Of a DNA stretch of 14,150 bases, positions 2 to 14,150 are shown in pieces. Each line of letters begins with the position of its first letter. The stretch's first letter is position 1. Location: the NCBI GenBank assembly GCA_036338595.1, contig JAYZBV010000047.1, forward strand, positions 1 to 14,150, given 5' to 3'. The translations under genes were made by a program, and so were the position numbers. Origin of the DNA: Planctomycetota bacterium (lineage in GTDB: Bacteria; Planctomycetota; UBA8108; UBA1146). The notes beneath the pieces were generated by a model, which worked only from the letters and a program-made list of their open reading frames with translations, made no database searches and was not told where the DNA came from.

Positions 2-205
2 AGGAATAAGTACGGCTGGACCCCGCTGATGCACGCCGCCCGCTACTCTTCTACCCCGGAAGTCGTCACGCTGTTGCTGGAAGAGGGCGCCGATGCTCTG
101 GCGAAGTCCAAGGAAGGCAAGAAGGCCATCGATTACGCCGAGGAGAACGTCAAGTTGAAGGATACGAAGGCGTACTGGAAGTTGCACGACCAGTCGTTCG
201 AGTAG
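2..205 (+). CDS. Ankyrin-repeat protein, C-terminal fragment (5' truncated by window edge)
   Basis: Manual translation of frame +2 gives RNKYGWTPLMHAARYSSTPEVVTLLLEEGADALAKSKEGKKAIDYAEENVKLKDTKAYWKLHDQSFE*, with TAG at 203-205. G-x-T-P-L-x-x-A-A...V-x-L-L-L-x-x-G-A-D matches the ankyrin consensus, and GKKAIDYA is a typical degenerate terminal repeat. Not in the ORF track because it has no start in the window. Confidence 0.9.
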   Translation, partial: RNKYGWTPLMHAARYSSTPEVVTLLLEEGADALAKSKEGKKAIDYAEENVKLKDTKAYWKLHDQSFE

Positions 206-262: not shown

Positions 263-1585
263 CTACTTCTCGCGGGTGGCGGTTTCTGGGGTGGGGACGG
301 GGACGCTTTCTCCCAGCATCTCGCGCGCCATATCGGCGATCTGTAGTGGCGGGGCCATCGCTTGTAGTTTGCGCCAGTCGCCGGTGCGGGTGTTGCCGAG
401 GATCAGCCAGGCGTTGTGGTCATCCTTGAAGGGGGTCCAGGCGCCGATCTTGGTCAGCACTTGCTTCACATCCGGCTTCTCTCCACCCAGTAGCAGCCAG
501 CCATCGTCGGGCAACTCGGCGGCATCGTGGTACGCCTTCATCCGTTCGACATTGTCGAACTCCGGATCGACCGTGATGGAGAGGATCACCACCTCGGGGC
601 CGATGCGATCCTCGAGGATGGCGCTGGTGTTCTTGAGGTTCTGGATGATGGGGGGGCAGACGCCGGTGCAGCGGGTGAACAGCACATGCATCAGCACCAG
701 TCGGTCGCGCAGCAGGTCGTCGAAGAAGCGCAGGGAGTTGCCGTCGTGATCGACCAGCACATTGTTGGGGAAGTAGTCGGCGGCCTCTGCGAGGCGACGG
801 AAGACCGCCGCTCGCTGTTCGATGCCGGAGGCGATCTCGGCGATGCCCTCGGCGCTGGAGAGTCCGTAGGTGCGGGCCCACTCGCCGGTCTGATCGTTGC
901 CGATCAGCACCGTGGCGGTGTGCTGTGTGATGTCGCCGGTGGCCGCATCGAGTGAACGAAGCAGTTGATCCATCGTCGGCTTGTCACCGGTGATGAAGCT
1001 CCATCCCGGCTCGGCGCCGAACAGGGCTCCAAACTTCTTGATGCGCGCGGGCGTATCGTTGGCGGGATCGACACTGACCGAGATGATTCGGATGGCGTCG
1101 CCGTGCTGCTCCTTCGTCAACTGCTGAACCCTGCGCATGGTGGCGGTCAGCGGCGGGCAGACGGTGGTGCAGGTGCTGAAGAAGACATTGATCAGCACCG
1201 TCTTGCCGGCGATCAGATCGGTGTGGAACTGAACCCGATTGCCGTCCTGGTCGAGCACCGATAGGTCGGCAATTTTTGGAGCCTCGATGAAGGCGGTGGC
1301 GCGCGAAGAATCCGCTTCGGTCGCCTCTTCGCAGCAGTCTTCATCTTTTTTGGGCTCCTGTACGGGCTTCTGTTCGCAGCACTCCTTGTCATCCGTCTTC
1401 GGGGTCGGCTGCTTGTCATCTTCGCAACAGGGCGGCTCCTGCGGCTCCTGAGAAGGGGACCCGGAGACCTGTAGAGACAACGCCATCGCATCGGGGCGCG
1501 GCGATGCATCCATCGCCGCATTCGTTGCACAGATGCAGATGATTGTCACGAGAGACATCAGTAGAAGTGCGCGCGCCATGGTCAT
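263..1585 (-). CDS. Secreted tandem SCO1/SenC-family copper chaperone (two SCO domains)
   Basis: Two thioredoxin-like SCO domains: LDQDG...FFSTCTTVCP...ISVSVDPANDTP...HTA (CxxxC at 1157-1171) and VDHDG...LFTRCTGVCP...LSITVDPEFD...HNA (CxxxC at 656-670). Each has the CxxxCP motif plus the downstream Cu-ligand His. N-terminal hydrophobic signal (MTMARALLLMSLVTIICICATNA) followed by an acidic Pro/Cys-rich linker. Confidence 0.93.
   Translation of the reverse strand: MTMARALLLMSLVTIICICATNAAMDASPRPDAMALSLQVSGSPSQEPQEPPCCEDDKQPTPKTDDKECCEQKPVQEPKKDEDCCEEATEADSSRATAFIEAPKIADLSVLDQDGNRVQFHTDLIAGKTVLINVFFSTCTTVCPPLTATMRRVQQLTKEQHGDAIRIISVSVDPANDTPARIKKFGALFGAEPGWSFITGDKPTMDQLLRSLDAATGDITQHTATVLIGNDQTGEWARTYGLSSAEGIAEIASGIEQRAAVFRRLAEAADYFPNNVLVDHDGNSLRFFDDLLRDRLVLMHVLFTRCTGVCPPIIQNLKNTSAILEDRIGPEVVILSITVDPEFDNVERMKAYHDAAELPDDGWLLLGGEKPDVKQVLTKIGAWTPFKDDHNAWLILGNTRTGDWRKLQAMAPPLQIADMAREMLGESVPVPTPETATREK
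1331..1429 (-). repeat. Three Cys-Cys-Glu repeats in the acidic N-terminal linker of the SCO protein
   Basis: PPCCEDDKQ / KECCEQKPV / EDCCEEATE; Cys-Cys codons at 1424-1429, 1376-1381 and 1331-1336 (spacing 48 and 45 nt). Confidence 0.8.
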
Positions 1586-1637
1586 CGTTGCACCTGTTCA
1601 AGGGTCCATCGGGTGAGTTCATGCGACAATCATACCG

Positions 1638-1676
1638 CCGCCGACCTGCTCCGCTGTTTGCGGATCTGGTCGGCGG
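1638..1676 (-). other. GC-rich inverted repeat (RNA hairpin) between oxidase stop and SCO start
   Basis: CCGCCGACCtGcTCCGC-tgttt-GCGGAtCtGGTCGGCGG: 17-position stem with 2 mismatches and a 5-nt loop, 12 nt downstream of the oxidase stop codon. No U-tract follows on the minus-strand mRNA, so it is not a classical intrinsic terminator. Confidence 0.7.
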
Positions 1677-1688
1677 GCACAGTTGACA

Positions 1689-4600
1689 CTAGGGGCAGTT
1701 GGTGAAGGAAACGCAATCGAGCGAGTCCGGCGTCAGATCGGCACCGCACTCGGTCGTGGGTGCTGCCGGTCCTTCGCCACCGACGAACAGGTAGTTCACC
1801 AGCGCCACCGCATCGGTGATGTCCACGAGTCCGTCATCATTGCAATCGGTTGCATCCATGCACAGCATCTGAGAACCGCCGAAGACGATGTTGAGCGTTT
1901 GCACCACATCTCCCAGGTCGAGGCCTCCATTTGCATTGGTGTCGCCACGCTGGAACCGTTGCGGCGCGATCGCCTCACCACAGGTGGGCACGATCGCATC
2001 GTCGCAGATGGTGTTTCCTCCGACACAGACGGTGAACGGCCCCGAGTTCTCGATCGGAATCGTGACCTCGAGGGTGCTGCCCGGCAGCGATGCGACCGGC
2101 ACCCCATCGATCGTTACATCCCACTGACCCATCTGGGTCGGCGAGTCCCACTGGATGGTCGCGAGATAGGTGGCAGGATCGATGCTGATGTCGACGACGG
2201 TCGGCGAAGTGGTGGCCACTCCCTCTGCCGTGATGTCGATGCAGGAAGAGGCACCGTTGACTCCATCGGCGACCGGTGTCAGGCAAAGCTGCTGGGTGCC
2301 GAGGGCATCCAGAGTGACACTCATCGAGGTCGCTTCTCCCGGAAGGTTCGCAAGCAACACTCCATCGAGGGTCGCTATGATCGAGGTCACGACGGTCGGA
2401 TTGGTCCAGTTGATGGCGAATGTGTTGCTACAGGGATCGACCACCGTTGCCGGATCGATGACCGGCGGTGTCGGGGCCAGCGCCATGGCGCAGTCTCCCG
2501 ATGGAGAATCGACCAGGTTGACGATGCCGACGACACAGTATGTGTAGCCACCCGGATCGATCGGATCGATGTGCGAGGTCTGATCGCCGGAAATTCTGCC
2601 AACTTCCGATCCATCACGGACCACCACGATCTCGTCGTAGAGGGTGTGATTTTCCCAGGCGAGTGCTGCTCCACCGCTGATGGGGAGACAGGCGAGTGCA
2701 CCCGGAGCGGGCGGCGTGATGGTCACATTACAGCTGACTGCCGTGGAAGGAAGGTCCTGGTTGACCGCGACCACCGAGTAGACATAGGTACCTGGAACCG
2801 CAATTTCATCGAGGTAACCGGTCGCCGTGCCCGGCATGATCGAGAGCAACTGGTTGTCACGGTAAATTTCCATCGTGACATAATCGATATCCGATGGAGT
2901 CCAGTTCAGTTGCGCACCGATGCCAGGAAGGGCACTGCAAGCGAGGTCCGAGACGGGCAGGGCAGGGATTCTGACATAGGGTTCGACCTTGAGCAGACCC
3001 CAGCAGCCGCCCGAGAAGGCGAAACTATCGAGCATCCGATACATGTAGGTGCCGGCTGAACGGGCTTCTCCACCCGCCTTGATCAGCACATTCTTGTGCG
3101 ACTGGGGACCGATCGGGCCCGATCCACCGATATTCATGCTCTGAGGGTTGTGGCCGATCCTGGTCGAACCGTCGGTGAAGGGTTGCCTTTGCCATGAGTG
3201 GCCAGAGACTCCGAAGGCGTGGCCATTGTCGCCACCGCCCGCCTGGGCAACACGGAACATCACCATCTGGCCCGCTTCTGCATCGCAACCGGGGGTCGCG
3301 GGGTCGAGGCACGGCAGATTGAGACAGCCTGCGAGAGAGGTGGTGGAACTGAACACGAGTGAATTGTCCATCGAACCCTGGGGTACCCATGGCGGCGAAG
3401 TTGTAATTCCCTGGCGCAGCCAGGTGGGTTCGGTCTTGTAGTTGTATCCGGCCGTGTTCTCCAGCTGATCCTCATCGAGACGGGAGTTGATCGTTCCCTT
3501 GGCAATGCGAGGGAACGAGTCCTGAACCTGCAGCACATATTCCCTGTAGATCAACAGCCCATCCTCATCGAGGATGTCCGCCTCGTAGCCACTTTTGGCC
3601 TCGACATAGCCGTTGCCATCATCGAAGTCGTAGAACCACTGCGATCCGGCCGGCTCGATCACCAGCGAGCCGAACAGGCCGTGCTTGTGATGGTTGAACA
3701 GATCGCCGTAGGAGCGCAGGTTCGTGACGCCGAACTCGATCGGCTGATACTCCACGGTGCCGTCAGGCTGAGCATGGATGGCTCCGGCGTACCAGGCATA
3801 GTGCTGGATGTCGCCAGGTCCGGCGAGGCTGTCCGGGTTCCAGCCAATATTGGTCGAAGAGCCCGATCCCATGTCGTGAGCGACCAGCTGAGGGCTGAGC
3901 CCGACCGTGGTCTGAACCGATTCGATGCCATTGAGCCGCGGCACGCCAATACCCGGAGAGATGCTGGCTGGCAGCATGTTGGTGAGGGTCACCTCGATGC
4001 ATTCTCCTGCGGAAGCTCGGATCACCAGCGGATCGACTTGCTTCTGCCCGGTCATGAACGGAATCATATCCTCCTCGTGGATGTATATGATTGCGTTGGG
4101 ATCGAACAGAGAGAACTTATCATTGTAGGACAGGCCCGCTCCACCGAGTAGATCGACCGCACGCCATGCCTGGATATTGATCGGGCGAATCGGCGGGGAT
4201 CCGGGACCGGTCGGGCAAAATCCTGACTGCAGCGGATGCTGCGGCCGAGGTGTCGCGCCGGAGTTGTTGGGCAGAAATGCGAGCCCTGGTTCAGGATCAT
4301 GATAGGCCCTGATGATTCCCCAGATCCCGTCACTGGCGCCCTTGTCGACCGAATCGAGATACATGTAGTCGGTCGCACCATGGCTTCCGGCGGTGTGTCT
4401 CAATCCATCGCCGAGCTTGAAGTACATCTCGAAGTGCTCCGAGATGCCATAGAACTGCATGTTGGTGAATCCTGAATTGGGGTTGGAGCCTTCCTGGAGC
4501 CAGCGGTTGCCGGTCACCGTGAAGGTGTGGAACTCCTCCTGAGCGCCATGGACGAGTGCAATCTTCACATTGTCACCCTCGTACGCACGAGCCAGCGGAG

Positions 4601-7600
4601 TGAAGGGATCGCCGTAGACGGACGAATCGAAGGCCAAATTGGCAGCAGCTCCGGCGGCTCCTCGAGTCGGAGGATCATTGCGGTAGTTGATGGTCTGTGC
4701 GCCACCCCCCATCGAGATCGCCTCGGGATTGTTCATGCCGGCCATGTCGGGGAAGGTGTCTTCCCCGTCTCCCACATCCTGCAGCTGAGATTTGGGCGCA
4801 TTGATGGGCATGTTGGCGCCGTCATATACCGGCATCCATTCACCGGTTTCGAAGACAAACTCCCGCATGCTGTCGGCACCCTGTACACCTGCCAGGATGT
4901 TGGCAGCCCAGGTCGTCGGACCGCCATCGGCTCTGGTTCCCAGTAGCGTGTTGCCGTTGGGGTAGGTCCAGATGGAGTCGGTCGGTTCGACCACTAACAC
5001 CGCGTAAAGCCCATGCTGCTGGTGAGAACTGGGGCCGAAGTGGTCATGAGTGAAGACCGAACGGATGGTGCGATCTTCTCCCTGATTGTTGACGAGGGGG
5101 TCGGCCCACCAGCGCTGTACAGTCGTCTGAGCGCCCATCCACTCATCATTGGGGCCTGGACCGAAGACCGGGTGAGATTCCTCGGTCAACAGTTGCTGGC
5201 CTCCGTTATTGGTGATCTGCCAGACATTGTTGGCGTGGATCCGCTCCCGGACTTCTTCCGGCGAGAAGGTACCGTCCTCGTAATTCCATCCGTTGGCACT
5301 GCCATCGGACGATGTGACATCGAACTTCACGAGGTGAATGTGCTGACCGATGATGTCGGTCGGCGTGAAGATCTGGAAATCATCGAGATTGAGATTGTTC
5401 GGCAACAGGTTGGTCGATTCGAACACGATGCACTCGCCGGAGTTGGCACGGAAAAAGAGTGGTTCCGGAGCCCGGGTTCCGTTGAGTGTCGGCATCACAT
5501 CCTCGTTGAGGACCGCAATCCGCGCCTGGCGATCGTGCCAGCCGAGTTCGTTGATGGTCATGTCAAACTGGATGTAGGCAGCCTTGTAGGTGCGAGTTCC
5601 GACCGGTCGGTTGAGGCCGTTTCCGTCGATGAATTGATCGGGGCAGGGATCTGCGAAGGGCGCTCCCGCCTGGGGAGCACGACCGTTGACGACAAAATAG
5701 CCGGGGTTTCCAGCACTGTCGAAGGACGGGTATCCGCGTCCGGGCCAGTTGTGGGAGTCGGTCACATCGACCGCAGTGGTGCCGAGGATTCCGGCGTGGA
5801 AATCCTGAGCAGCGACCTCGAGGGTGGTTCCACCGGGGGGGAGCAGTTCGATCTCTGCGGAATCGATGACCCTGCTGAAGCCGGTCTTGGCCGGGTGTGG
5901 ATCGTTGCTGTTGACACGCTGGAACACGGGATCGATCAGGTAGTGGCCGGCAATCCCTGCTTCGCCATCGGTGACGCTACTGGACTTGACGCGGTGACGT
6001 TGAAGACCTCCATCGTGAACCATCTCCAGCGGCGGTTGAGGAGCACGATGTCCAGCTTCCCCCGCGATGTAATGCGGGTATCCGGGGAACTCCGAGGTCG
6101 GCATCGGCGGCATCGCTTTACCCGGCATCGGCACTAGCCCTGGAACCGGTGTGCCCTGAACAATCTCACCGTCAGGCAAGTTTCTCGATGAACTTCCATC
6201 CTCGAATACATCGTGGGTTCTCCACAGGCTCCACATCCCCTGGGCGAAGTGGGGATACAGGTGGCAGTGAAAGAGGCTGTCGCCGGGAGTCTTGTTGCGG
6301 TTTCCACTGCCGGAGTAATTGATCTCGTAGGTGTAACTGCTACCGGGGGAAATCGACTGTGAATCGATGTAACTCGAGTTCGGGTTCCTCGGTTCAAACA
6401 ACCATTGATGAGCGTGAAGGTGGAACACATGGGTTTCGGACCCTATGTGAAGGTTTCTGAACCGGACTCCATCATTCATGTAGGAGTGATAGACATTCGA
6501 CGGGTCTTCGCTGTATGTCGCACTCTCGACGACGCCGCTGACAGGATTACTCGTGACCGGCATCGCCGGATCTCCATTGGCCCACGATTCGAGGAAGAAC
6601 TCCTCGAACTTGCATTCTCCACAGTTCCTCGCCGGACCATCTCCGAGACGGGTGGCGAGCACGGGAGCACCCATACCCCCGCATCCGTAATTGATGGCAA
6701 AGCCATCGCGAACACCTTTGTAGAGATTGTCCTCATGGAGCACGGGGTAGGCCTGTGTGATGCCGATCTCATCGTGGAAGATGATCACGAACTCACGGTA
6801 TGGATCTCCGCAGGTGCCCGATGGGGGAGCATCGAGGCAGTCCTCGCCGCCTGGAATGACCAGCGCAGTGAGGTCGGAGTGGATCGTGTTCAGGTTGTCA
6901 TCGAGGATTCGCAACAGTGGCTTGCCACTGGCATCGGTGGCGTTGTAGTCGATCTGTGGCGTCCCGTTGGGGTTCAATCCCGTGGTCGCTGAAGCCAGCA
7001 CCGCCTCGCTCACCTGTGATCGGTACCAGGTCGAACCTTCCGGTTGAACGGTGACCGCACCGAACAAGCCGCGGGCGACGGCGCCCTGGGCACCCTCTCC
7101 GCCGAGGCTCGACGATGGGGAGTTGAAGAGGAACTGGCCTTCCTTGGCGCAGTAGAATCGAAACATACTCGTCTGCATGGCAGCCAAAGGTGCGACTTGA
7201 TTGGCCCCCAGTGCCAGTCCCTCGCTCGATGGCGAACACGGTTCCAGGCCGTTGACATGGAACGCGACCGTTCTGGTTCCGTTATTGGAATCGAAGCCAC
7301 CGACACCATTGTTAGGGGGAGTGGTGGCGAGCAGATTGGTCAGCGTGATCTCGAGGCAATCTCCGACATTGGCTCTCAGCACCAGCGGTCGAGGCCGCTT
7401 GTTGTTCTTGAGGCGTACATTGCCGGGCGAGATGGCGCTTCCGGGAGAGATGGGGATGACATCGCTGGCGAGTGCGAAGATCATCCCGTGGGGATCTCTG
7501 GCACCAAATCGGTTGTACCAGATCACCTGATCCAGGGCGACGATGTCAGCAGTGATGGTCCGGTTGCACGGGACAGAATAAAACTGCGGGTCGGCCGTCT

Positions 7601-7670
7601 GAGCTGAGGTCGGCGTATACAGAGCCACGACCAACACCAGACAGGCACACTTGATTAGTTTTTTCAACAC
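1689..7670 (-). CDS. Large MnxG-like multicopper oxidase (candidate Mn(II) oxidase) with C-terminal FN3-like repeats and dockerin-like domain
   Basis: Cu motifs HVFHLHAHQW (6402-6431), FHCHLYPHFAQGMW (6231-6272; T1 Cys/His/Met), HIHLVKFD (HIH at 5334-5342) and FTHDHFGPSSHQQHGLY (~5004-5054). Repeated cupredoxin-start motifs (PLVLRANVGDCLEITLTN, PLFFRANSGECIVFESTN, PLVIRASAGECIEVTLTN) indicate a 6-domain architecture as in MnxG. The likely start is GTG 7670 (or TTG 7667) after GGAGAGTGGAG, giving signal peptide MLKKLIKCACLVLVVALYTPTSA-Q; the ORF-track start at 7865 adds an implausible 65 aa. Substrate is not proven. Confidence 0.9.
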   Translation of the reverse strand: MLKKLIKCACLVLVVALYTPTSAQTADPQFYSVPCNRTITADIVALDQVIWYNRFGARDPHGMIFALASDVIPISPGSAISPGNVRLKNNKRPRPLVLRANVGDCLEITLTNLLATTPPNNGVGGFDSNNGTRTVAFHVNGLEPCSPSSEGLALGANQVAPLAAMQTSMFRFYCAKEGQFLFNSPSSSLGGEGAQGAVARGLFGAVTVQPEGSTWYRSQVSEAVLASATTGLNPNGTPQIDYNATDASGKPLLRILDDNLNTIHSDLTALVIPGGEDCLDAPPSGTCGDPYREFVIIFHDEIGITQAYPVLHEDNLYKGVRDGFAINYGCGGMGAPVLATRLGDGPARNCGECKFEEFFLESWANGDPAMPVTSNPVSGVVESATYSEDPSNVYHSYMNDGVRFRNLHIGSETHVFHLHAHQWLFEPRNPNSSYIDSQSISPGSSYTYEINYSGSGNRNKTPGDSLFHCHLYPHFAQGMWSLWRTHDVFEDGSSSRNLPDGEIVQGTPVPGLVPMPGKAMPPMPTSEFPGYPHYIAGEAGHRAPQPPLEMVHDGGLQRHRVKSSSVTDGEAGIAGHYLIDPVFQRVNSNDPHPAKTGFSRVIDSAEIELLPPGGTTLEVAAQDFHAGILGTTAVDVTDSHNWPGRGYPSFDSAGNPGYFVVNGRAPQAGAPFADPCPDQFIDGNGLNRPVGTRTYKAAYIQFDMTINELGWHDRQARIAVLNEDVMPTLNGTRAPEPLFFRANSGECIVFESTNLLPNNLNLDDFQIFTPTDIIGQHIHLVKFDVTSSDGSANGWNYEDGTFSPEEVRERIHANNVWQITNNGGQQLLTEESHPVFGPGPNDEWMGAQTTVQRWWADPLVNNQGEDRTIRSVFTHDHFGPSSHQQHGLYAVLVVEPTDSIWTYPNGNTLLGTRADGGPTTWAANILAGVQGADSMREFVFETGEWMPVYDGANMPINAPKSQLQDVGDGEDTFPDMAGMNNPEAISMGGGAQTINYRNDPPTRGAAGAAANLAFDSSVYGDPFTPLARAYEGDNVKIALVHGAQEEFHTFTVTGNRWLQEGSNPNSGFTNMQFYGISEHFEMYFKLGDGLRHTAGSHGATDYMYLDSVDKGASDGIWGIIRAYHDPEPGLAFLPNNSGATPRPQHPLQSGFCPTGPGSPPIRPINIQAWRAVDLLGGAGLSYNDKFSLFDPNAIIYIHEEDMIPFMTGQKQVDPLVIRASAGECIEVTLTNMLPASISPGIGVPRLNGIESVQTTVGLSPQLVAHDMGSGSSTNIGWNPDSLAGPGDIQHYAWYAGAIHAQPDGTVEYQPIEFGVTNLRSYGDLFNHHKHGLFGSLVIEPAGSQWFYDFDDGNGYVEAKSGYEADILDEDGLLIYREYVLQVQDSFPRIAKGTINSRLDEDQLENTAGYNYKTEPTWLRQGITTSPPWVPQGSMDNSLVFSSTTSLAGCLNLPCLDPATPGCDAEAGQMVMFRVAQAGGGDNGHAFGVSGHSWQRQPFTDGSTRIGHNPQSMNIGGSGPIGPQSHKNVLIKAGGEARSAGTYMYRMLDSFAFSGGCWGLLKVEPYVRIPALPVSDLACSALPGIGAQLNWTPSDIDYVTMEIYRDNQLLSIMPGTATGYLDEIAVPGTYVYSVVAVNQDLPSTAVSCNVTITPPAPGALACLPISGGAALAWENHTLYDEIVVVRDGSEVGRISGDQTSHIDPIDPGGYTYCVVGIVNLVDSPSGDCAMALAPTPPVIDPATVVDPCSNTFAINWTNPTVVTSIIATLDGVLLANLPGEATSMSVTLDALGTQQLCLTPVADGVNGASSCIDITAEGVATTSPTVVDISIDPATYLATIQWDSPTQMGQWDVTIDGVPVASLPGSTLEVTIPIENSGPFTVCVGGNTICDDAIVPTCGEAIAPQRFQRGDTNANGGLDLGDVVQTLNIVFGGSQMLCMDATDCNDDGLVDITDAVALVNYLFVGGEGPAAPTTECGADLTPDSLDCVSFTNCP
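1692..1955 (-). other. Dockerin-type-I-like (duplicated EF-hand-like Ca loop) C-terminal domain of the oxidase
   Basis: FQRGDTNANGGLDLGDVVQTLNIVFGG...CMDATDCNDDGLVDITDAVALVNYLFVGG...ECGADLTPDSLDC: two DxNxxGxxDxxD-helix repeats. The Cys-containing F-x-R-G-D...P-x-x-x-C-G-x-D variant resembles the form common in Planctomycetota proteins. Confidence 0.85.
1956..2960 (-). repeat. Four tandem ~80-88 aa FN3/Ig-like domains in the oxidase
   Basis: Repeating pattern LNW/LAW/INW/IQW ... RDNQL/RDGSE/LDGVL/IDGVP ... MPGTAT/ISGDQT/LPGEAT/LPGSTL ... GTYVYSV/GGYTYCV/GTQQLCL/GPFTVCV, with Cys residues in each repeat. Confidence 0.75.
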
Positions 7671-8435
7671 AGCGCTCCACTCTCCACCTGCTATCCGGGC
7701 TGGAAGCGCCAGGCACTCACTGGAGCCCTGGTTCACTTGCGCCGGATCTGTTCGTGCTCCTGGCAGCGCCGCAGCCGATACATGGCGGTCTGGGGAAACC
7801 GCACGGCGACCGATGCAACAGGAGCAATAGTAAACACCCCCCCCAGACGAATAGATGACAAACACATCGGGTGGTCACCCGAAGCGAGCATCACATCTTC
7901 TCCAGTCAATCAATACGATCCTATTCATAGAGTGGAGATGGGACAAGGTACAGCCGCATATATCCGCACCATGATTGCATACATTACACGAATAGGAGAA
8001 GAGTCAGATGAGTCAGGTGCATCCCCTTCGGCGATGCCAGTATTCGACGATAATCGTGCAAATGCAGCAGATCAGGGAAATGATACTGATGTGGAGGTTG
8101 TCAACATGTCTAGTGTGTACTTCTTGTAACACTAATCAAATCAGTACCAATTTTGTGAGTAGAGCATTGTCTGTGAAGCCTCCTGTGGCTAGGATTCTGT
8201 CTGGGCATGATTCTTTTGTATGCTGTTCGTATGCATTTCAAATGGGGCGGGTGCTCACCTGGCGGGTTTGACCGTCTGGTACTTATCAGAGATGGCTCTG
8301 AGGCCATCTGTCGGAGGTGTTCATTCCCGGTTTGCTCGACCGGGTCCAGAGAACTGGGATGGAAATTTCGATATGACGAATAACCAAAGTCGTCGTCAGG
8401 CAACTGATGACACCGATGGAGGGAGAATCTGCGCG
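7671..8435. promoter_or_regulatory. Divergent promoter/regulatory region between the oxidase-SCO unit and the paralog pair
   Basis: ~765 bp between divergent starts, visibly more AT-rich than the flanking genes (e.g. 8100-8240). Contains a perfect TTGACA on the minus strand (8099-8104), palindromes GTTGTCAAC (8097-8105) and ACGATAATCGT (8047-8057), and an imperfect inverted repeat at 8111-8134. Exact promoters cannot be assigned. Confidence 0.6.
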
Positions 8436-10874
8436 ATGGTCACCCAACAGATCTACCGCAAGGTCTTACTTGCAATCATTGTTCTACTGATGCCTGCATT
8501 CGTAGCAGCACAGCAAAATGGCGTCGGAGAAGCTACCGAGGGAATCACCGGGGCTGCGGTCTCGGGAGAGATCGAGTTCATCTCGGTCGATGATCCTAAC
8601 GACCCCTACTCTGCCGGAACCCTGGTCGTTGCGGGGCAGGCCTGGATCATTCCAGCCAACCTCCTGATCGACCTGCCTGCCAACCGCCTGACGCTTCAGC
8701 AAATCATTGAACAGTCACCACCCGAGGCGCTCGCGCTGGGTGAGACTGGACTCGCGAAGGGAGACAGCACCGTTCGCGGACGAGGTGGAGCGATAGCCGA
8801 CATGCTCGGCAACCAGATGGCCGACGGCCGCAACATCGCAGGACTTGTCTTCATCCAGAAGAGTTCAGACTTCCTCACCGGAGATGTCACCTTCATCCAC
8901 CACACTGAGGGATATGTTTGCATCAATGGAGAAATGGGCGTCGACGGCACCGGAACGATGGTCAGGATCAACGATATAGACGCAGTCCATACGATCCAGT
9001 CCGGTCTCGGTTGTACCGATGGCATGCCCAACTGCAGTCCAGATCTTCGCTTTGGAAATGATCCCGAGAACTACACCGTTGTGTTCTCCAACGGATACCC
9101 GATGTGTATCCCCAGTACCGTCACCGGAGGTGCCCGCACCAGCGGATCCGACGCAAACGGTGAAGGCGATGAGTTCTGTCCCAATTACAACCGGGAAGGC
9201 CCGGTGCGCGGTAATGGAACCGAAGCGGAAGATTCTCGCTTCCAGGCTCCCTTGCAACTCGGAGACAATATTTCCGCAGAGGGAAATGTCGAGAACATCA
9301 ACGGTCAGAGCTTCTTCTCTTGCCACAGCATGGCCAATGGCAAGGCGATCACGACTCGTGACGATCCGACACAGCCCGCTTACCTGATGGCGGATGAGGT
9401 CGAATGGGATGCGCCAGGATTCTCCAATGAGCGCGTCAAGGTGCTGCTGATCGGATTCTCTACTCTCGATAGTTCACAGGTCGATATGTACGCAATGGAT
9501 GTCGATCCTGAGACCAACGAGAACCACCAGCGCTTGATCGGAAGTACCCGCAACAACCCGAATACGGTCGGCCATGGTATCGGTCAGGGACGCATGGGTG
9601 TCTTCAAGGTCACCTACGATGTCGACTTCCTCAAGGGAGCTCCCGTCGGTCCTCGCAATTCACCATGCACCCACCTGAACGCTTCCGGCTACGATGTTTG
9701 CCCGCAGGGCGGAACCATCAATGAGGAGTTCTCACTGCTGACTCCGATCACGCGGGAGTGTCTGTTCGTGTCCGTGCATGCCTCGGAACTCGATCCTGGT
9801 ATCGAGGCCTACAACATCCAGGGGGATGCCTGGACCCACGACCAGTACCTCACTCCGGCCGGCACCGGGTTCCCCGAATGGGACGAGATCGATCTCAATC
9901 GCATGTGGATGCCGATGATCTTCGCCGGTGAAAACTGGCATCTGGATCGTCGCCTAGGCCCTGGTGGCTGCTGGGATGACAACGATGACGGAGTGGTCGA
10001 TTGTGAGGATAACTCGGCGATTCCCATCGGAGACCTGCACCTCGATCCCTTCCCCTACTCTGGCATCAACCCGATGGTTGGCCTCCTGGGTGGTGGAAAT
10101 CTGGAACCCGAGGCTGATGAGGTTGACACCGTGCTCGGAGAGATCTGTGGAAACGGTATCGACGACGATGGCGACCTGGCCATCGACTGTGATGATATCG
10201 AATGCGAGCTGGATGCGGTCTGTGTCGCGCTCGAACAGGCCGGTGGCGAGATCGGTGAAGTGGGCCTCTGTGCCGATGGACTCGATAACGACGACGATGG
10301 GCTGATCGACTGCTTCGATCCGGAATGTTCCGGTTCTGCCGACTGCGTCGGTATTGGAGCCGTGCTCGCATTCACCTTCGTGCCGACCAACATGGAGCGG
10401 ATCTTCGGCTACTACCCCTTCGAGTATGCCGATCTGGATGGCGATCCGACCAACGGAGACGAGACGCTGATCACGATGATTCCCTTCGCCACTCCCGAAG
10501 GAGAGATCACCAGTTACGCAACCGATCTGAAGCCTGCTCCTGGAGTGCCGATCGAACTTCCAGTTCTGATCACCCCCTGTGAGGGCTTCAATGCTGCGCC
10601 TCAGGCAGCGCTACCAGGTGCGACGGGTATCGCAGTGCTCCAGGACACGGCCGTGATCGTTGCTGAATCGGATATGGCGACGGATGCAGATGGGGATCAC
10701 CTCACCATCACATTCGATCCTGGTACTGCAGGCGGAACACTGGCTCTGGTTGGTGGAGATTACGTCTACACGCCGGCGACTGGTTTTGTCGGAAATGAAT
10801 CCTTCACCTTCACTGCGACTGATGCTCATGGCGGTGAGACCACCGGCACCATCAGCTTCGAAGTGACGCAGTGA
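8436..10874 (+). CDS. Secreted protein: unassigned ~520-aa Cys/His-containing domain + acidic Cys/Asp motifs + one C-terminal cadherin/Big_9-like Ig domain (paralog 1)
   Basis: GGAGGGAG (8418-8425) precedes ATG 8436, giving signal peptide MVTQQIYRKVLLAIIVLLMPAFVAA-Q and 812 aa; the ORF-track start at 8220 is probably too far upstream. C-terminus NAAPQA...DADGDHLTI...YVYTPATGFVGNESFTFTATDAHGGETTGTISFEV is a typical bacterial Ig/cadherin-like repeat. Clear homology to the next gene. Confidence 0.88.
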   Translation: MVTQQIYRKVLLAIIVLLMPAFVAAQQNGVGEATEGITGAAVSGEIEFISVDDPNDPYSAGTLVVAGQAWIIPANLLIDLPANRLTLQQIIEQSPPEALALGETGLAKGDSTVRGRGGAIADMLGNQMADGRNIAGLVFIQKSSDFLTGDVTFIHHTEGYVCINGEMGVDGTGTMVRINDIDAVHTIQSGLGCTDGMPNCSPDLRFGNDPENYTVVFSNGYPMCIPSTVTGGARTSGSDANGEGDEFCPNYNREGPVRGNGTEAEDSRFQAPLQLGDNISAEGNVENINGQSFFSCHSMANGKAITTRDDPTQPAYLMADEVEWDAPGFSNERVKVLLIGFSTLDSSQVDMYAMDVDPETNENHQRLIGSTRNNPNTVGHGIGQGRMGVFKVTYDVDFLKGAPVGPRNSPCTHLNASGYDVCPQGGTINEEFSLLTPITRECLFVSVHASELDPGIEAYNIQGDAWTHDQYLTPAGTGFPEWDEIDLNRMWMPMIFAGENWHLDRRLGPGGCWDDNDDGVVDCEDNSAIPIGDLHLDPFPYSGINPMVGLLGGGNLEPEADEVDTVLGEICGNGIDDDGDLAIDCDDIECELDAVCVALEQAGGEIGEVGLCADGLDNDDDGLIDCFDPECSGSADCVGIGAVLAFTFVPTNMERIFGYYPFEYADLDGDPTNGDETLITMIPFATPEGEITSYATDLKPAPGVPIELPVLITPCEGFNAAPQAALPGATGIAVLQDTAVIVAESDMATDADGDHLTITFDPGTAGGTLALVGGDYVYTPATGFVGNESFTFTATDAHGGETTGTISFEVTQ
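10140..10346 (+). repeat. Two C-x-[ND]-G-x-D-[DN]-D-x-D-x-x-x-D-C-x-D-x-E-C acidic cysteine motifs in paralog 1
   Basis: EICGNGIDDDGDLAIDCDDIEC (10140-10205) and CADGLDNDDDGLIDCFDPEC (10269-10328), each followed by a fourth Cys. Resembles the disulfide-bonded Ca/metal-binding CxDGxDNDxDG repeat of extracellular proteins. Confidence 0.75.
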
Positions 10875-10920
10875 GCGCATGAAGATTATTGGCATCTTGG
10901 AAAACAGGAGAGTGGACAAC

Positions 10921-13900
10921 ATGTTCAACCAACTAGATAGAAAGAAGGCTAGGATGACATCTCTCACGAGATCCCTCGCCCTGCTGGTATCGATTGCGAC
11001 AATGTTCGCAGCCGCTCCGGCGCAAGGCCAGGTTTCGGAAAGCCCTCCCCCGACATCACGAGCAGTCGTGGTTCTGGGTGAGATCGAGCACGTCTTTGTC
11101 GACGACATGACCGACATGTTCTCGGCAGGATGGATCATCGCAGATGGTACTGCGGTGAGGGTTCCTGCGAATCTGCTGATCGATCTGCCCGCCAACCGGT
11201 TGACGATCAGGGACCTGATGGCTGGTGCTCCCGCTGACTGTGCCGCAAATGGCGAGTCCGGGCTGGGAAGTACCGATGAGTGCCTGCGCAGCAGGGGCCT
11301 GAATGGTGGTGGCTTGCAGGCGATGTGTAACCGTCAAGAGGATGGATTCATCATCGCGGGCGATATCTTCATCAACAAGTCGATGATCGGAAACGTCGCA
11401 GGGGGAATCATGCCGACGACAGTCGGTGGCTATGTCTCCTATATCGATCACGACCAGGGTTACTTTGTCGTCAACGGCGCGCTGAACCAGAAGCCCTCGG
11501 TAGACGGTGGTACCGACAAGCGAGGCGTCATCGTCAGGTTCAACGACCCCGAAACGCGACAGTCGATTCAGTCTGGCCTCGGTTGTGATCCTGCAAATGG
11601 AACCAACTGCAGTCCCGATCCTCGTTTCTGCACCGATCCCGACAACTACTCGATGACATTTGCGACCGGTTATCCGGTGTGCATTCCCAGTAGCGACACT
11701 TCCGATCCAGCCCGTGATGACGGTGCGGATCCGGCTACTGGAGCGGGTGACGAGTTCTGTCCGATGTGGAACCGTGAGCTTACAGGGCCACGCGAACGAA
11801 CTGTTCCGGACTCCAGGTTCTTCGTGCCGCTGGTCGTGAATGATCCGATCGGTGTCGAGGGTAACTTCGAGGTCGTCAACGGTATCCGCTTCTTCTCCAC
11901 ATACGGTGGAGGTATTGCGTTGGGTCTCAAGACCAGAGACGTACCCGATCAGCCCGACCATATGATCTGGGCAGAGGTGGAGGCCGATTGTCCACCCTTC
12001 GATAACGCCAGGATCAAGTCGCTCTGCATTGCGTTCACGACTCTCGATTCTTCCTGGATCGATATCTACAAGCTCCACAAGGATCCGGTTTCCGGTGAAG
12101 ACATGGAGTACCCATGGGGTTCGACGGTCGGAAACATCGGCACACGGTTCCATGGCATGCCTCCCAACGCTGGTGGCATCGCGAAGGTTGGCTACGATGT
12201 CGACTTCCTGCTCGGTGCCCCCGTGGTGCCGGGACACGGCCCCTGTGGAAACCTCTTGAACGCTGGTTATCTTGTCTGCCCCAATGGCGGCACGATGGCC
12301 GAAGAGGTGGCGTTAAGTGCGCCCATCATGCGCGAAGTCATCGGATATTCGCGTCACCGTCTCGAGTTGAACCCCGGCGTTTTCCCGGTCGATATGCTCG
12401 GTCGCGAGGCGCAACACGGCATGTACATCACGCCTATTGGTGTTGGACATCCGGAATTCGGTGAGATCAATCTCAACAAGGCTGATTTCCCGTTCGTCTT
12501 CGCAGGCATTCCGTGGAACCTTGATCGCCGTCTTGGCGTCGGTGGCTGCGCAGAGATCAATGATGAGCTGGCCTGTGAAGATCCAAATGTGGTTCCTCTG
12601 GGATCTCTGGCGTTGGATCCGTTCCCGGCCTCCGGCGATCCTGACTGGGTACAGCACTCCATCAACAACGGAGTTCCTCCCTTCACGGCGGAAATACTGT
12701 ACTCATACCATCCGTTTGGACCCGGCGATGTTCTGGATCCCGAGCCGGATCCGCCAGGAGACAGGACCTTCCCTCCGGTTTCAGATGGCTTGCAAGGGCT
12801 CCTCTGCGATGGGACCAACACAGGCCCGCAGGCAGGTGCCGATAGCCTTGCCGCGATCGAGGACACTGCCTCGGCGATGACCCTGGATGATCTGCTGTTG
12901 AACGATAGTGACCCTGATCTCGACACCCTCGAGGTGTTCATGGTCGAGGGAACCAGCCGAGAAGGGGGAACCGTGACCTCTGCGGGTGCACAGGTGACCT
13001 TCCAGGGGGCCCAGGATTACAACGGTCCCGACGAGTTCTTCTACAGCGTGACCGACGGTCATGGCGGTGTTTCTCGTGGTTCGGTAAGTGTTACCATCAC
13101 TCCCGTAAACGACAACCCGACTGGCCAGATCGACGAGGTCACGATGGCATCCGGTGCAGAGTTCCTCTTCACCGATGCATTGCTGCTTGCTAACGACCAT
13201 GATGTCGACAATGACCCGCTGACCGTCACAGCCATCACAGCAGCGGGAGTTTCCCCGGGAACCATGACCCCGACCGCTTCCGGTTGGTCCTTCCTTCCGG
13301 CGGGTCCTGGCCTGAGTGCATGGAGTTACACCATCGATGACGGAAATGGTGGAACCGCCATCTCCGTCGTTCGATTCTGGGTTGATAACACTGCCCCGGT
13401 GGCGACCGACGATGTGGCTACCATCGACGAGGATCATCAGGCAAATCTGGCGGTCTTGCTCAACGACACCGATGCGGATTTCGATACGCTGTCGGTCACG
13501 AGCGCCACGGATGGCCTGCTCGGCACGGTCGAGATCCTGCCAGGTGGCAATCTGCTCTACACTCCGGAACTGGATGCAAACGGCTCCGATTCCTTCTCAT
13601 ACACCATCACTGATTTGAAGGGTACTGAAGCATCCGCCTCGGTCACCATCACCATCAATCCGATCAACGATGCTCCGCGCGTATCGAACGATTCCGTGAC
13701 GACGCTCGAAGATCATGCTGTTGATATTCATGTGCTGGCCAACGATTACGATCCTGAAGGCGATAACATGACGGTGTCGATTCCGACCGCCGCCGCGTTC
13801 GAAGGATCGGTTCAAGTGCTCGCTGGAGGGGTCCTGCGCTTCACGCCGCTACCCGACTCGGCGCTTGGCCTGACGGCCAACTTCCAATACATCGTCACCG

Positions 13901-14150
13901 ATCCGTTCGGTGCCTTTGACACCGGTGTCGTCGATGTTCTGGTCATTCCAGTCAACGACCAGCCAGTGACGGGTATCGATACAGTGGTGATGCTTGAGGA
14001 CACAACGACAACATTGAATGTGCTTCTCAACGATTTCGATGTGGACAACGATCAGCTCAGGGTCATCGCCCTGGAGCCGCAGGCTGGATTCCCCGGCACG
14101 GTCACATGGGATATGAACGGTAATGTCACCATCGACCCGGATCCGGATGC
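10921..14150 (+). CDS. Secreted protein: same unassigned Cys/His-containing domain + at least 5 tandem cadherin/Big_9-like Ig repeats (paralog 2; 3' truncated by window edge)
   Basis: Manual translation of frame +1 is open from ATG 10921 (AGGAG at 10906-10910; alternative in-frame ATGs at 10879 and 10954) to the window end, >1076 aa: MFNQLDRKKARMTSLTRSLALLVSIATMFAAAPAQG-QVSE...GEIEHVFVDD...VPANLLIDLPANRLT...IQSGLGCDPANGTNCSPDPRF...GYPVCIPS...GDEFCP...YDVDFLLGAPV...WNLDRRLGVGGC...LDPFP. Absent from the ORF track because no stop is in the window. Confidence 0.92.
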   Translation, partial: MFNQLDRKKARMTSLTRSLALLVSIATMFAAAPAQGQVSESPPPTSRAVVVLGEIEHVFVDDMTDMFSAGWIIADGTAVRVPANLLIDLPANRLTIRDLMAGAPADCAANGESGLGSTDECLRSRGLNGGGLQAMCNRQEDGFIIAGDIFINKSMIGNVAGGIMPTTVGGYVSYIDHDQGYFVVNGALNQKPSVDGGTDKRGVIVRFNDPETRQSIQSGLGCDPANGTNCSPDPRFCTDPDNYSMTFATGYPVCIPSSDTSDPARDDGADPATGAGDEFCPMWNRELTGPRERTVPDSRFFVPLVVNDPIGVEGNFEVVNGIRFFSTYGGGIALGLKTRDVPDQPDHMIWAEVEADCPPFDNARIKSLCIAFTTLDSSWIDIYKLHKDPVSGEDMEYPWGSTVGNIGTRFHGMPPNAGGIAKVGYDVDFLLGAPVVPGHGPCGNLLNAGYLVCPNGGTMAEEVALSAPIMREVIGYSRHRLELNPGVFPVDMLGREAQHGMYITPIGVGHPEFGEINLNKADFPFVFAGIPWNLDRRLGVGGCAEINDELACEDPNVVPLGSLALDPFPASGDPDWVQHSINNGVPPFTAEILYSYHPFGPGDVLDPEPDPPGDRTFPPVSDGLQGLLCDGTNTGPQAGADSLAAIEDTASAMTLDDLLLNDSDPDLDTLEVFMVEGTSREGGTVTSAGAQVTFQGAQDYNGPDEFFYSVTDGHGGVSRGSVSVTITPVNDNPTGQIDEVTMASGAEFLFTDALLLANDHDVDNDPLTVTAITAAGVSPGTMTPTASGWSFLPAGPGLSAWSYTIDDGNGGTAISVVRFWVDNTAPVATDDVATIDEDHQANLAVLLNDTDADFDTLSVTSATDGLLGTVEILPGGNLLYTPELDANGSDSFSYTITDLKGTEASASVTITINPINDAPRVSNDSVTTLEDHAVDIHVLANDYDPEGDNMTVSIPTAAAFEGSVQVLAGGVLRFTPLPDSALGLTANFQYIVTDPFGAFDTGVVDVLVIPVNDQPVTGIDTVVMLEDTTTTLNVLLNDFDVDNDQLRVIALEPQAGFPGTVTWDMNGNVTIDPDPD
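12817..14150 (+). repeat. Tandem ~93-97 aa cadherin-like/Big_9 (tandem-95) Ig repeats
   Basis: Repeat starts NTGPQA (12817), NDNPTG (13108), NTAPVA (13387), NDAPRV (13666), NDQPVT (13954). Each contains L-[LA]-N-D-x-D-x-[DE]-x-D-x-[LM], and the four complete ones end with a Y-x-[VI]-[TD]-D-x-x-G motif. Confidence 0.9.

Follow-up and report, generated by a model that had tools for sequence, protein, structure and literature searches.

What do four secreted proteins encoded together in a Planctomycetota genome do, and which of them act as partners? The locus occupies 14,150 nt (contig JAYZBV010000047.1 of assembly GCA_036338595.1), hereafter the window, which is the entire contig C47 of genome G000 (88% complete; 2321 open reading frames (ORFs) called). 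Two minus-strand genes encode a two-domain SCO copper chaperone and an MnxG-type multicopper oxidase; two plus-strand genes, divergent from these, encode paralogs (A and B) that share a ~560-residue domain. The original prediction had named the same four signal-peptide-bearing genes, and all four are confirmed as long ORFs with signal-like N-termini (the signal peptides were assigned by eye). It joined them into one surface-displayed metal-oxidising assembly, with the paralogs as accessory or scaffold components of the oxidase. The arrangement proposed here would instead comprise two secreted modules: the oxidase with its SCO, and the tandem domain proteins with a long di-haem enzyme encoded close by. 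We give a probability of about 0.42 to this joint reading, in which a likely Mn(II) oxidase and its chaperone lie beside a likely pair of di-haem enzyme substrates serving a shared metal-oxidation toolkit. It starts from genes, motifs, co-inheritance, adjacency and fusions that are directly observed.

The link between the paralogs and the di-haem enzyme emerges from related genomes. A panel of 61 was searched, 28 from the same marine family and 33 others; the family-level relatives are mostly labelled Planctomycetota (UBA1146, TMED53), with some under other labels, in agreement with the Planctomycetota-like lineage predicted from the DNA. Kin genomes in this and all other co-occurrence counts are not independent. 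The domain occurs in 28/28 family genomes and 0/33 others, and the long di-haem enzyme in 28/28 and, more weakly, 2/33. The MnxG-type oxidase is found in 14/28 (0/33 others); with SCO it forms a dispensable block, missing from two genera (0/6 and 0/8). In these two genera paralog A is preceded by a gene for a secreted CCP_MauG protein of 1550–1600 aa; in 12 of the 14 genomes this di-haem gene shares contig and strand with A and lies just upstream of it. The G000 ortholog (58% identity) is on contig C60, whose end matches sequence upstream of an ankyrin-repeat gene in G008 and whose start is overlapped by C5. The window begins with the 3′ end of the corresponding ankyrin gene of G000 (2..205, plus strand), which connects it to C60 by synteny; the di-haem enzyme would thus probably come first, followed by a small gene, the ankyrin gene, SCO, MnxG and paralogs A and B. 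Where the ankyrin gene starts, at the C60 end (L159:8200-8588), it apparently has in-frame stops relative to G008 and may be broken or misassembled. In genera without MnxG the long di-haem enzyme has two additional paralogs in tandem (G022 and G025 have only one), and at G012:C8:53586-61870 the extra paralogs adjoin a three-domain multicopper oxidase.

Gene fusions tie the domain to the same enzyme: five distinct domain/di-haem fusions were found (P0037, P0038, P0125, P0126 and L066; L068 and P0126 are probably one gene), and no domain–oxidase fusion among 263 proteins or 4 longer matches. The enzyme has two CxxCH motifs ~340 residues apart within a core of ~600 aa on a stalk. A Tyr in “VVxFY”, kept in 22 of 23 homologs, aligns to the Tyr of PDB 6e1c, which we take to be MbnH. 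From this alignment and a published account of the superfamily (PMC6405878), the conserved Tyr is inferred to be the haem-2 ligand; Tyr-His ligation marks MauG and BthA, where it is used for bis-Fe(IV) chemistry (PMC6405878). The enzyme falls under every NCBIfam cut-off: ortholog L022 reaches 63 of 444 bits for MauG (TIGR03791) and 82 of 363 bits for MbnH (TIGR04039). The sequence network of PMC6405878 may contain it, unnamed.

The association extends beyond the family. A cross-phylum genome scan for the domain confirmed 270 stretches, the best 80 of which represent 73 loci; subtraction of 23 family loci left 50 outside loci from 48 genomes, the flanks of many being shorter than 10 kb, and with mostly incomplete metagenome-assembled genomes (MAGs) among those negative for the enzyme. 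The di-haem enzyme is present at 21 of the 50, one a weak match that was later dropped (~20/50), and in 29 of the 48 genomes. At the 26 outside loci of at least 15 kb, the enzyme is found at 14, SCO at 10, a multicopper oxidase at 12 and any oxidase at 16. Background samples (201 Nitrospirota, 401 Acidobacteriota and 401 Gammaproteobacteria genomes) each include their own centre genome. The Nitrospirota sample has the domain in 5/201 and the enzyme in 16/201; all five overlap, four of them on one contig (p 2e-5 with the centre genome removed, for genomes that include non-independent kin). At L195:6582-15266 (G297:C50) a di-haem gene lies between two domain copies. Cultured carriers of the domain include Methylobacter luteus and Polaromonas jejuensis, and the search of plasmids gave three weak partial matches only.

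Could the paralogs nevertheless be subunits of the window oxidase, replacing MnxE/F in a single dockerin-assembled surface complex? The 14 family genomes with both MnxG and the domain place them as divergent neighbours in nine, ambiguously at a contig end in one and unlinked in four. The adjacency in 9/14 speaks for a subunit role, as do the enrichment of MnxG-types among outside carriers of the domain (20/48 at genome level) and the Acidobacteriota sample (domain 2/401, MnxG-type 10/401), where both domain carriers have MnxG. Against it, the paralogs persist without MnxG in 14/28 family genomes and are not co-inherited with it, and an MnxG-type lies within 10 kb of the domain at 0/50 outside loci. 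The domain was not found in 8 of the 10 MnxG-bearing Acidobacteriota, nor in five further MnxG genomes (0/5, a search that had no positive control; three of these overlap the eight). At L182 a Bacillus-type mnxG is preceded by two small genes, which we take from position only to be mnxE/F; against the window's own genome they gave E 0.27 and 0.55, in a search that easily misses short divergent proteins. As an obligate link, the subunit arrangement is largely refuted, and overall we hold it to be very improbable. The domain does have multicopper oxidases as neighbours, of types other than MnxG: outside flanks hold SCO at 15/50, another multicopper oxidase at 16/50, a MopA-like peroxidase at 2/50 and any oxidase at 26/50 (the query sequences for the multicopper oxidase and MopA-like counts were taken from those loci). 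The predicted genomic linkage to multicopper oxidases thus exists, with the part concerning MnxG itself failing, and the frequency of other oxidases and SCO makes a wider metal-oxidation toolkit plausible. At two of the loci (L092:1565-8251, L102:2-4408) the neighbours of the domain are a multicopper oxidase, SCO and a MopA-like animal haem peroxidase that bears calcium repeats.

What, then, is the oxidase? Its gene (1689..7670, minus strand; likely GTG start at 7670, open frame to 7865) encodes ~1990 aa with a secretion signal-like N-terminus as judged by eye. The protein matches NCBIfam NF041487 (MnxG) with 885 bits (E 9.6e-266, 5 stretches), under the curated cut-off of 3100 bits, which no protein passes in any of the 61 genomes (0/61); it is therefore classed as MnxG-type and not as an MnxG equivalog. 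The best solved-structure match is Bacillus MnxG (PDB 9bxa, E 4.5e-106), and alignment to it places the copper ligands in MnxG order: H479-H486; H533-C534-H535-H539-M544; H842/H844; and H940/H942. The motifs HVFHLHAH and HCHLYPH...M (type 1 and trinuclear ligands; 6234..6431, minus strand) are kept in family orthologs, and HIH and HDH...H lie at 5010..5345 (minus strand). In an IQ-TREE phylogeny of 23 proteins, the oxidase falls among the long Gram-negative MnxG-types (SH-aLRT 99), with Bacillus-type MnxG outside on a long branch; the tree is a quick one with SH-aLRT support only and outgroups on long branches. The MnxG-type identity proposed at the outset is thus upheld by motifs, structure match and clade. 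Within the clade, which includes a Pseudomonas-type member of 2414 bits, the oxidase sits in a family-specific subclade. One relative, G016, has a second, more Pseudomonas-like mnxG (L049:76-8848, G016:C219; 1500 bits) with a beta-propeller gene and tandem SCO; the tree places it outside the family clade.

MnxG-types oxidise Mn(II) in Bacillus and P. putida (PMC13689576, PMC8218464), and judging by sequence the window oxidase probably does the same, although homology alone is no proof of Mn oxidation (10.1101/2022.11.10.515945). As in the P. putida GB-1 mnxG operon and Bacillus Mnx (9bxa), a large oxidase has four copper motifs in MnxG order and a secretion signal. It differs from these in its FN3-like stalk, its dockerin-like tail and its 885 of 3100 bits, and the window contains no beta-propeller, SurA, ABC or MnxS/R genes. 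An alternative is a cell-surface role for the whole gene set in oxidising organic polymers or in clearing reactive oxygen, with the MnxG-type protein not mainly a manganese oxidase. The family-specific subclade, distant from tested enzymes, would suit such chemistry, a role against reactive oxygen species has been proposed for MnxG-like proteins of Nitrospina/Nitrospira (PMC3578206), and the genome encodes ~137 secreted proteins of mixed function with the same tail. The presence of all four copper motifs, the full-length likeness to MnxG and the recurrence around the domain of three oxidase types known for Mn(II) oxidation make this alternative distinctly improbable.

The chaperone (263..1585, minus strand, downstream of the oxidase) is, as predicted, a secreted two-domain SCO1/SenC protein (Pfam PF02630, E 7.7e-33, 2 stretches); its domains, of thioredoxin type and 32% identical to each other, both have CxxxC and a distal His (C139xxxC143 with H222; C306xxxC310 with H390). 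A role as copper chaperones has been proposed for the SCO genes of mnxG and mcoA operons (PMC13689576, PMC8218464), and this SCO likely loads the oxidase with copper. The GB-1 mnxG operon has two SCO1/SenC genes; the window has two SCO units, fused in one protein. A second oxidase system is encoded elsewhere in the genome (L158:10107-14559, G000:C53): a three-domain multicopper oxidase whose tail is a long poly-Asp stretch and, after it, an SCO–cytochrome c fusion. The order of three-domain oxidase and SCO, found in G000 (C53) and in 22/28 family genomes, resembles mcoA-SCO of P. putida, and in other phyla the neighbours of the domain include similar oxidases as well as MopA-like peroxidases. 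The label “McoA-like” is our assumption from motif and gene order. The three-domain oxidase and/or an MnxG-type is kept in 25/28 family genomes.

Paralog A (8436..10874, plus strand; ORF 8220-10874, likely start 8436) consists of a signal peptide, the domain (from 8562), two acidic double-disulfide repeats and one Big_9. Paralog B (10921..14150, plus strand; open frame from 10879 to the contig end) has a signal peptide, the domain (~11059-12750) and a Big_9/cadherin-like stalk; it extends through a 141-bp overlap onto contig C105, reaching a full length of ~1500 aa and ending in the same dockerin-like tail as the oxidase. The two are 45% identical over 559 aa, and A and B copies form sister clades, placing the duplication at family level. 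The earlier description of them as paralogous proteins on Ig repeats stands, but its Cys/His component does not: the domain has no invariant His (the best columns reach 85% and 79% of 124 sequences), so a Cys/His metal site is unsupported as a family feature. Paralog A keeps both of these columns, and four of the five commonest His columns in all; paralog B lost both. One Trp is invariant, W573 in A and W546 in B, in 124/124 sequences; second Trp columns are conserved in only 54–63% of the 124. D223, D247, D253, D291, D322 and E331 are invariant among 43 domain sequences, several Cys (likely paired) and Tyr257 are invariant or almost so, and the invariant set is mostly Asp/Glu/Gly/Pro/Cys.

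The domain has no Pfam, NCBIfam or PDB sequence match, and the ESM Atlas returned unnamed clusters or nothing; a profile search gave 332 representatives at E<=1e-30, part of them through stalk repeats. An AlphaFold2 model built from 124 sequences is confident (pLDDT 90.3, pTM 0.90, ~565 residues). Foldseek found nothing at E<=0.001 for two domain models, and a fold search with both returned generic Ig-like and OB-like matches (best VIA Z 6.8 and 4.8). Weak matches of the deeper model, with Z at most 4.8, suggest an Ig-like sandwich and a pair of OB-like barrels; the fold-search outcome demonstrates neither a new fold nor a function. The idea that the Trp motif folds only on a partner was dropped, as the low confidence of a first model disappeared with the deeper, longer alignment. 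The OB-like barrels may be distant kin of DUF5666, repeats of which are fused to the domain in P0219; DUF5666 also occurs beside SCO in Nitrospira loci (L105:8161-10209).

How would the two modules work? The MnxG-type oxidase, loaded with copper by the two-domain SCO, would oxidise Mn(II). The long di-haem enzyme, of MauG/MbnH type, would take paralogs A and B as substrates or partners and, using H2O2 and its Tyr-ligated haem, would oxidise the sole invariant Trp of the domain, a step proposed by likeness to MauG, MbnH and (as proposed) CorB/SACCP acting on their partners. MauG-like enzymes are shown to oxidise a partner Trp in MADH and MbnP; MopE/CorA have been proposed as partners, and MtoX is a supported one (PMC11951088, PMC3912023, PMC3621798, PMC5739008). 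The oxidation would yield a Trp-derived metal site or quinone amid the invariant Asp/Glu, on a domain held away from the cell by Ig stalks. So modified, the paralogs would contribute to a common extracellular toolkit for copper/manganese oxidation (MnxG-type, three-domain oxidase with SCO, sometimes MopA-like) and would not cap MnxG as MnxE/F do.

The same residues allow for a domain that is never modified: a surface protein rich in carboxylates would bind Ca2+/Mn2+ and gather metal or seed oxide for any oxidase present, and would cluster with di-haem enzymes and oxidases through shared regulation. The predominance of Asp/Glu/Gly/Pro/Cys among invariant residues is consistent with such a collector. 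So is the company the domain keeps: among the 48 outside genomes, 41 have the di-haem enzyme, an MnxG-type, a linked three-domain oxidase or more than one of these, and MnxG-types are found in 20/48 carriers against 10/401 and 3/401 in the Acidobacteriota and Gammaproteobacteria backgrounds. A collector would leave the invariant Trp unaccounted for, however, and in all five fusions the partner of the domain is the di-haem enzyme, never an oxidase; we consider it unlikely. A further possibility is that the domain is itself a copper or Trp-quinone enzyme, matured by SCO and a MauG-like protein and acting on a small organic or sulfur substrate with no manganese role. The model here is the methanethiol oxidase cluster mtoX-SCO1/senC-mauG (PMC5739008), where a secreted protein is likewise flanked by SCO and a MauG-like gene, a trio echoed by SCO (15/50) and di-haem enzyme (~20/50) around the domain. 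A conserved Cys could link to the Trp, as in cysteine tryptophylquinone (CTQ), and paralog A has His at columns conserved in 53–85% of 124 sequences. MtoX, however, is of SBP56 type and has strictly conserved His and Trp, and the window domain has no Pfam match, no invariant His and no second invariant Trp, with the two best-conserved His lost in paralog B. The SCO genes mostly adjoin a multicopper oxidase, which accounts for them. Such an enzyme is quite unlikely.

The proposed partnership of domain and di-haem enzyme has precedents in MbnH-MbnP, SACCP-MopE, CorB-CorA and MauG-MADH, where an exported Tyr-type di-haem enzyme adjoins or is fused to a secreted Trp-bearing partner with copper genes nearby. 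It differs from these pairs in three ways. First, the enzyme core of ~600 aa sits on a stalk and scores below NCBIfam cut-offs. Second, the partner is of another family (predicted two OB-like barrels and Ig-like sandwich, one invariant Trp). Third, pairing is frequent but not obligate. MbnP, MopE, CorA, MtoX and MADH are all missing from the sequence and fold matches of the domain, a result in which the 596-residue model can hide single-domain matches; a divergent second domain copy from Methylococcaceae has no PDB match either, MopE/CorA included.

Several observations weigh against the two-module interpretation. With one invariant Trp, and lacking both WxW and an invariant His, the domain departs from MbnP, MopE/CorA and MtoX. 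The long di-haem enzyme was not found in 19/48 outside genomes with the domain, including 6/7 Pyrinomonadaceae-type genomes, which hold several MnxG-types instead, so the partnership is not obligate; conversely, 11/16 Nitrospirota genomes with the enzyme are without the domain, and BthA is a Tyr-type enzyme without known substrate (PMC6405878). Seven of the 48 outside genomes show no companion of any kind. The join of C60 to C47 is one of synteny across the ankyrin gap and not of sequence overlap, and the oxidase reaches only 885 of 3100 bits on the equivalog model.

Pyrinomonadaceae-type Acidobacteriota have a distinct arrangement: at L090, L096, L101, L117 and L127 the domain follows a two-component/response-regulator cluster, with a sigma-54-like site upstream at four loci, in genomes with several MnxG-types where the long di-haem enzyme was not detected. 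Across domain homologs such sites occur upstream in 6/48 cases (four from one clade) against 50/1016 background windows, and they were not used; in the window itself 11 matches were found where 11.7 are expected, and the divergent region has no fitting one. That region (7671..8435, ~765 bp) has lower GC and is poorly conserved. It had been described as shared by all four genes, which holds for the oxidase and paralog A, the only two that border it; SCO and paralog B are downstream genes.

The C-terminal parts of the oxidase are likewise less particular to the locus than first thought. Its stalk (1959..2972, minus strand) consists of repeats common to many secreted proteins of the genome (54 high-scoring segment pairs); they were described as FN3 and are FN3-like by eye only, with no Pfam fn3 match on the oxidase. 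The tail (1689..1958, minus strand) is dockerin-like as predicted but scores 19.3 bits against Dockerin_1 (PF00404), under the gathering score of 22.9, which some relatives' tails narrowly exceed. It recurs in 137/2321 called ORFs of G000 (~6%), C-terminally in 131; as a lineage-wide tag of secreted proteins, it says nothing specific about this locus, and it may serve the lineage as a sorting or anchoring signal. Cohesin-like matches in G000 amount to three weak single ones in 400–470-aa frames, one above cut-off, from a search whose control was positive in 3/14 genomes and in a genome 88% complete; along with the genome-wide tail, they would speak against a dockerin-assembled complex at this locus. 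Elsewhere, P0127 and P0128 are 2500-aa proteins that join the domain with Dictyostelium-type repeats, a cohesin and a dockerin-like domain.

Are these genes expressed? Twenty RNA runs from 17 studies contain part of the stretch, and four were aligned (one labelled hydrothermal vent, three seawater or marine); habitat was read from these four alone. Their contigs, mostly 90–99% alike, come from close relatives, with DNA carry-over possible; they cover both paralogs, one spanning 8291-14150, and include pieces of the oxidase in 4/4 runs, SCO in 3/4 and the di-haem gene in 4/4. Depth cannot rank these genes, and coverage gaps carry no weight. Contigs of two studies start at 8231/8232, a weak hint of a 5′ end in the divergent region.

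The window MnxG and SCO belong to an already known type, and the domain/di-haem pair varies the known scheme of MauG and partner. Mn-oxidase genes have already been reported in 15/29 Planctomycetota MAGs (PMC10732223), and the present family may figure in Supplementary Table 1 of that study; the accessible part of a complete-genome survey makes no mention of Planctomycetota (10.1101/2022.11.10.515945). Literature searches on Mn oxidation, MauG partners and this lineage listed no paper describing the domain or the cluster. In its widest form, the proposal is that Mn is oxidised widely and actively by a marine Planctomycetota family not yet in culture, and that a new long di-haem class builds a Trp-derived metal site in a new protein family, an accessory arm of bacterial Mn(II) oxidation spanning at least eight phyla; so much taken together is unlikely. 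There is no settled answer as to which microbes oxidise manganese in open and deep ocean waters, and a 2026 review treats the need of Gram-negative Mn oxidases for accessory proteins as an open question (PMC13689576). The family described here carries an MnxG-type and/or three-domain oxidase in 25 of its 28 genomes, and transcripts of close relatives appear in marine and vent RNA libraries. Its domain, given the one invariant Trp, is a concrete candidate substrate for an uncharacterised branch of MauG-like enzymes.

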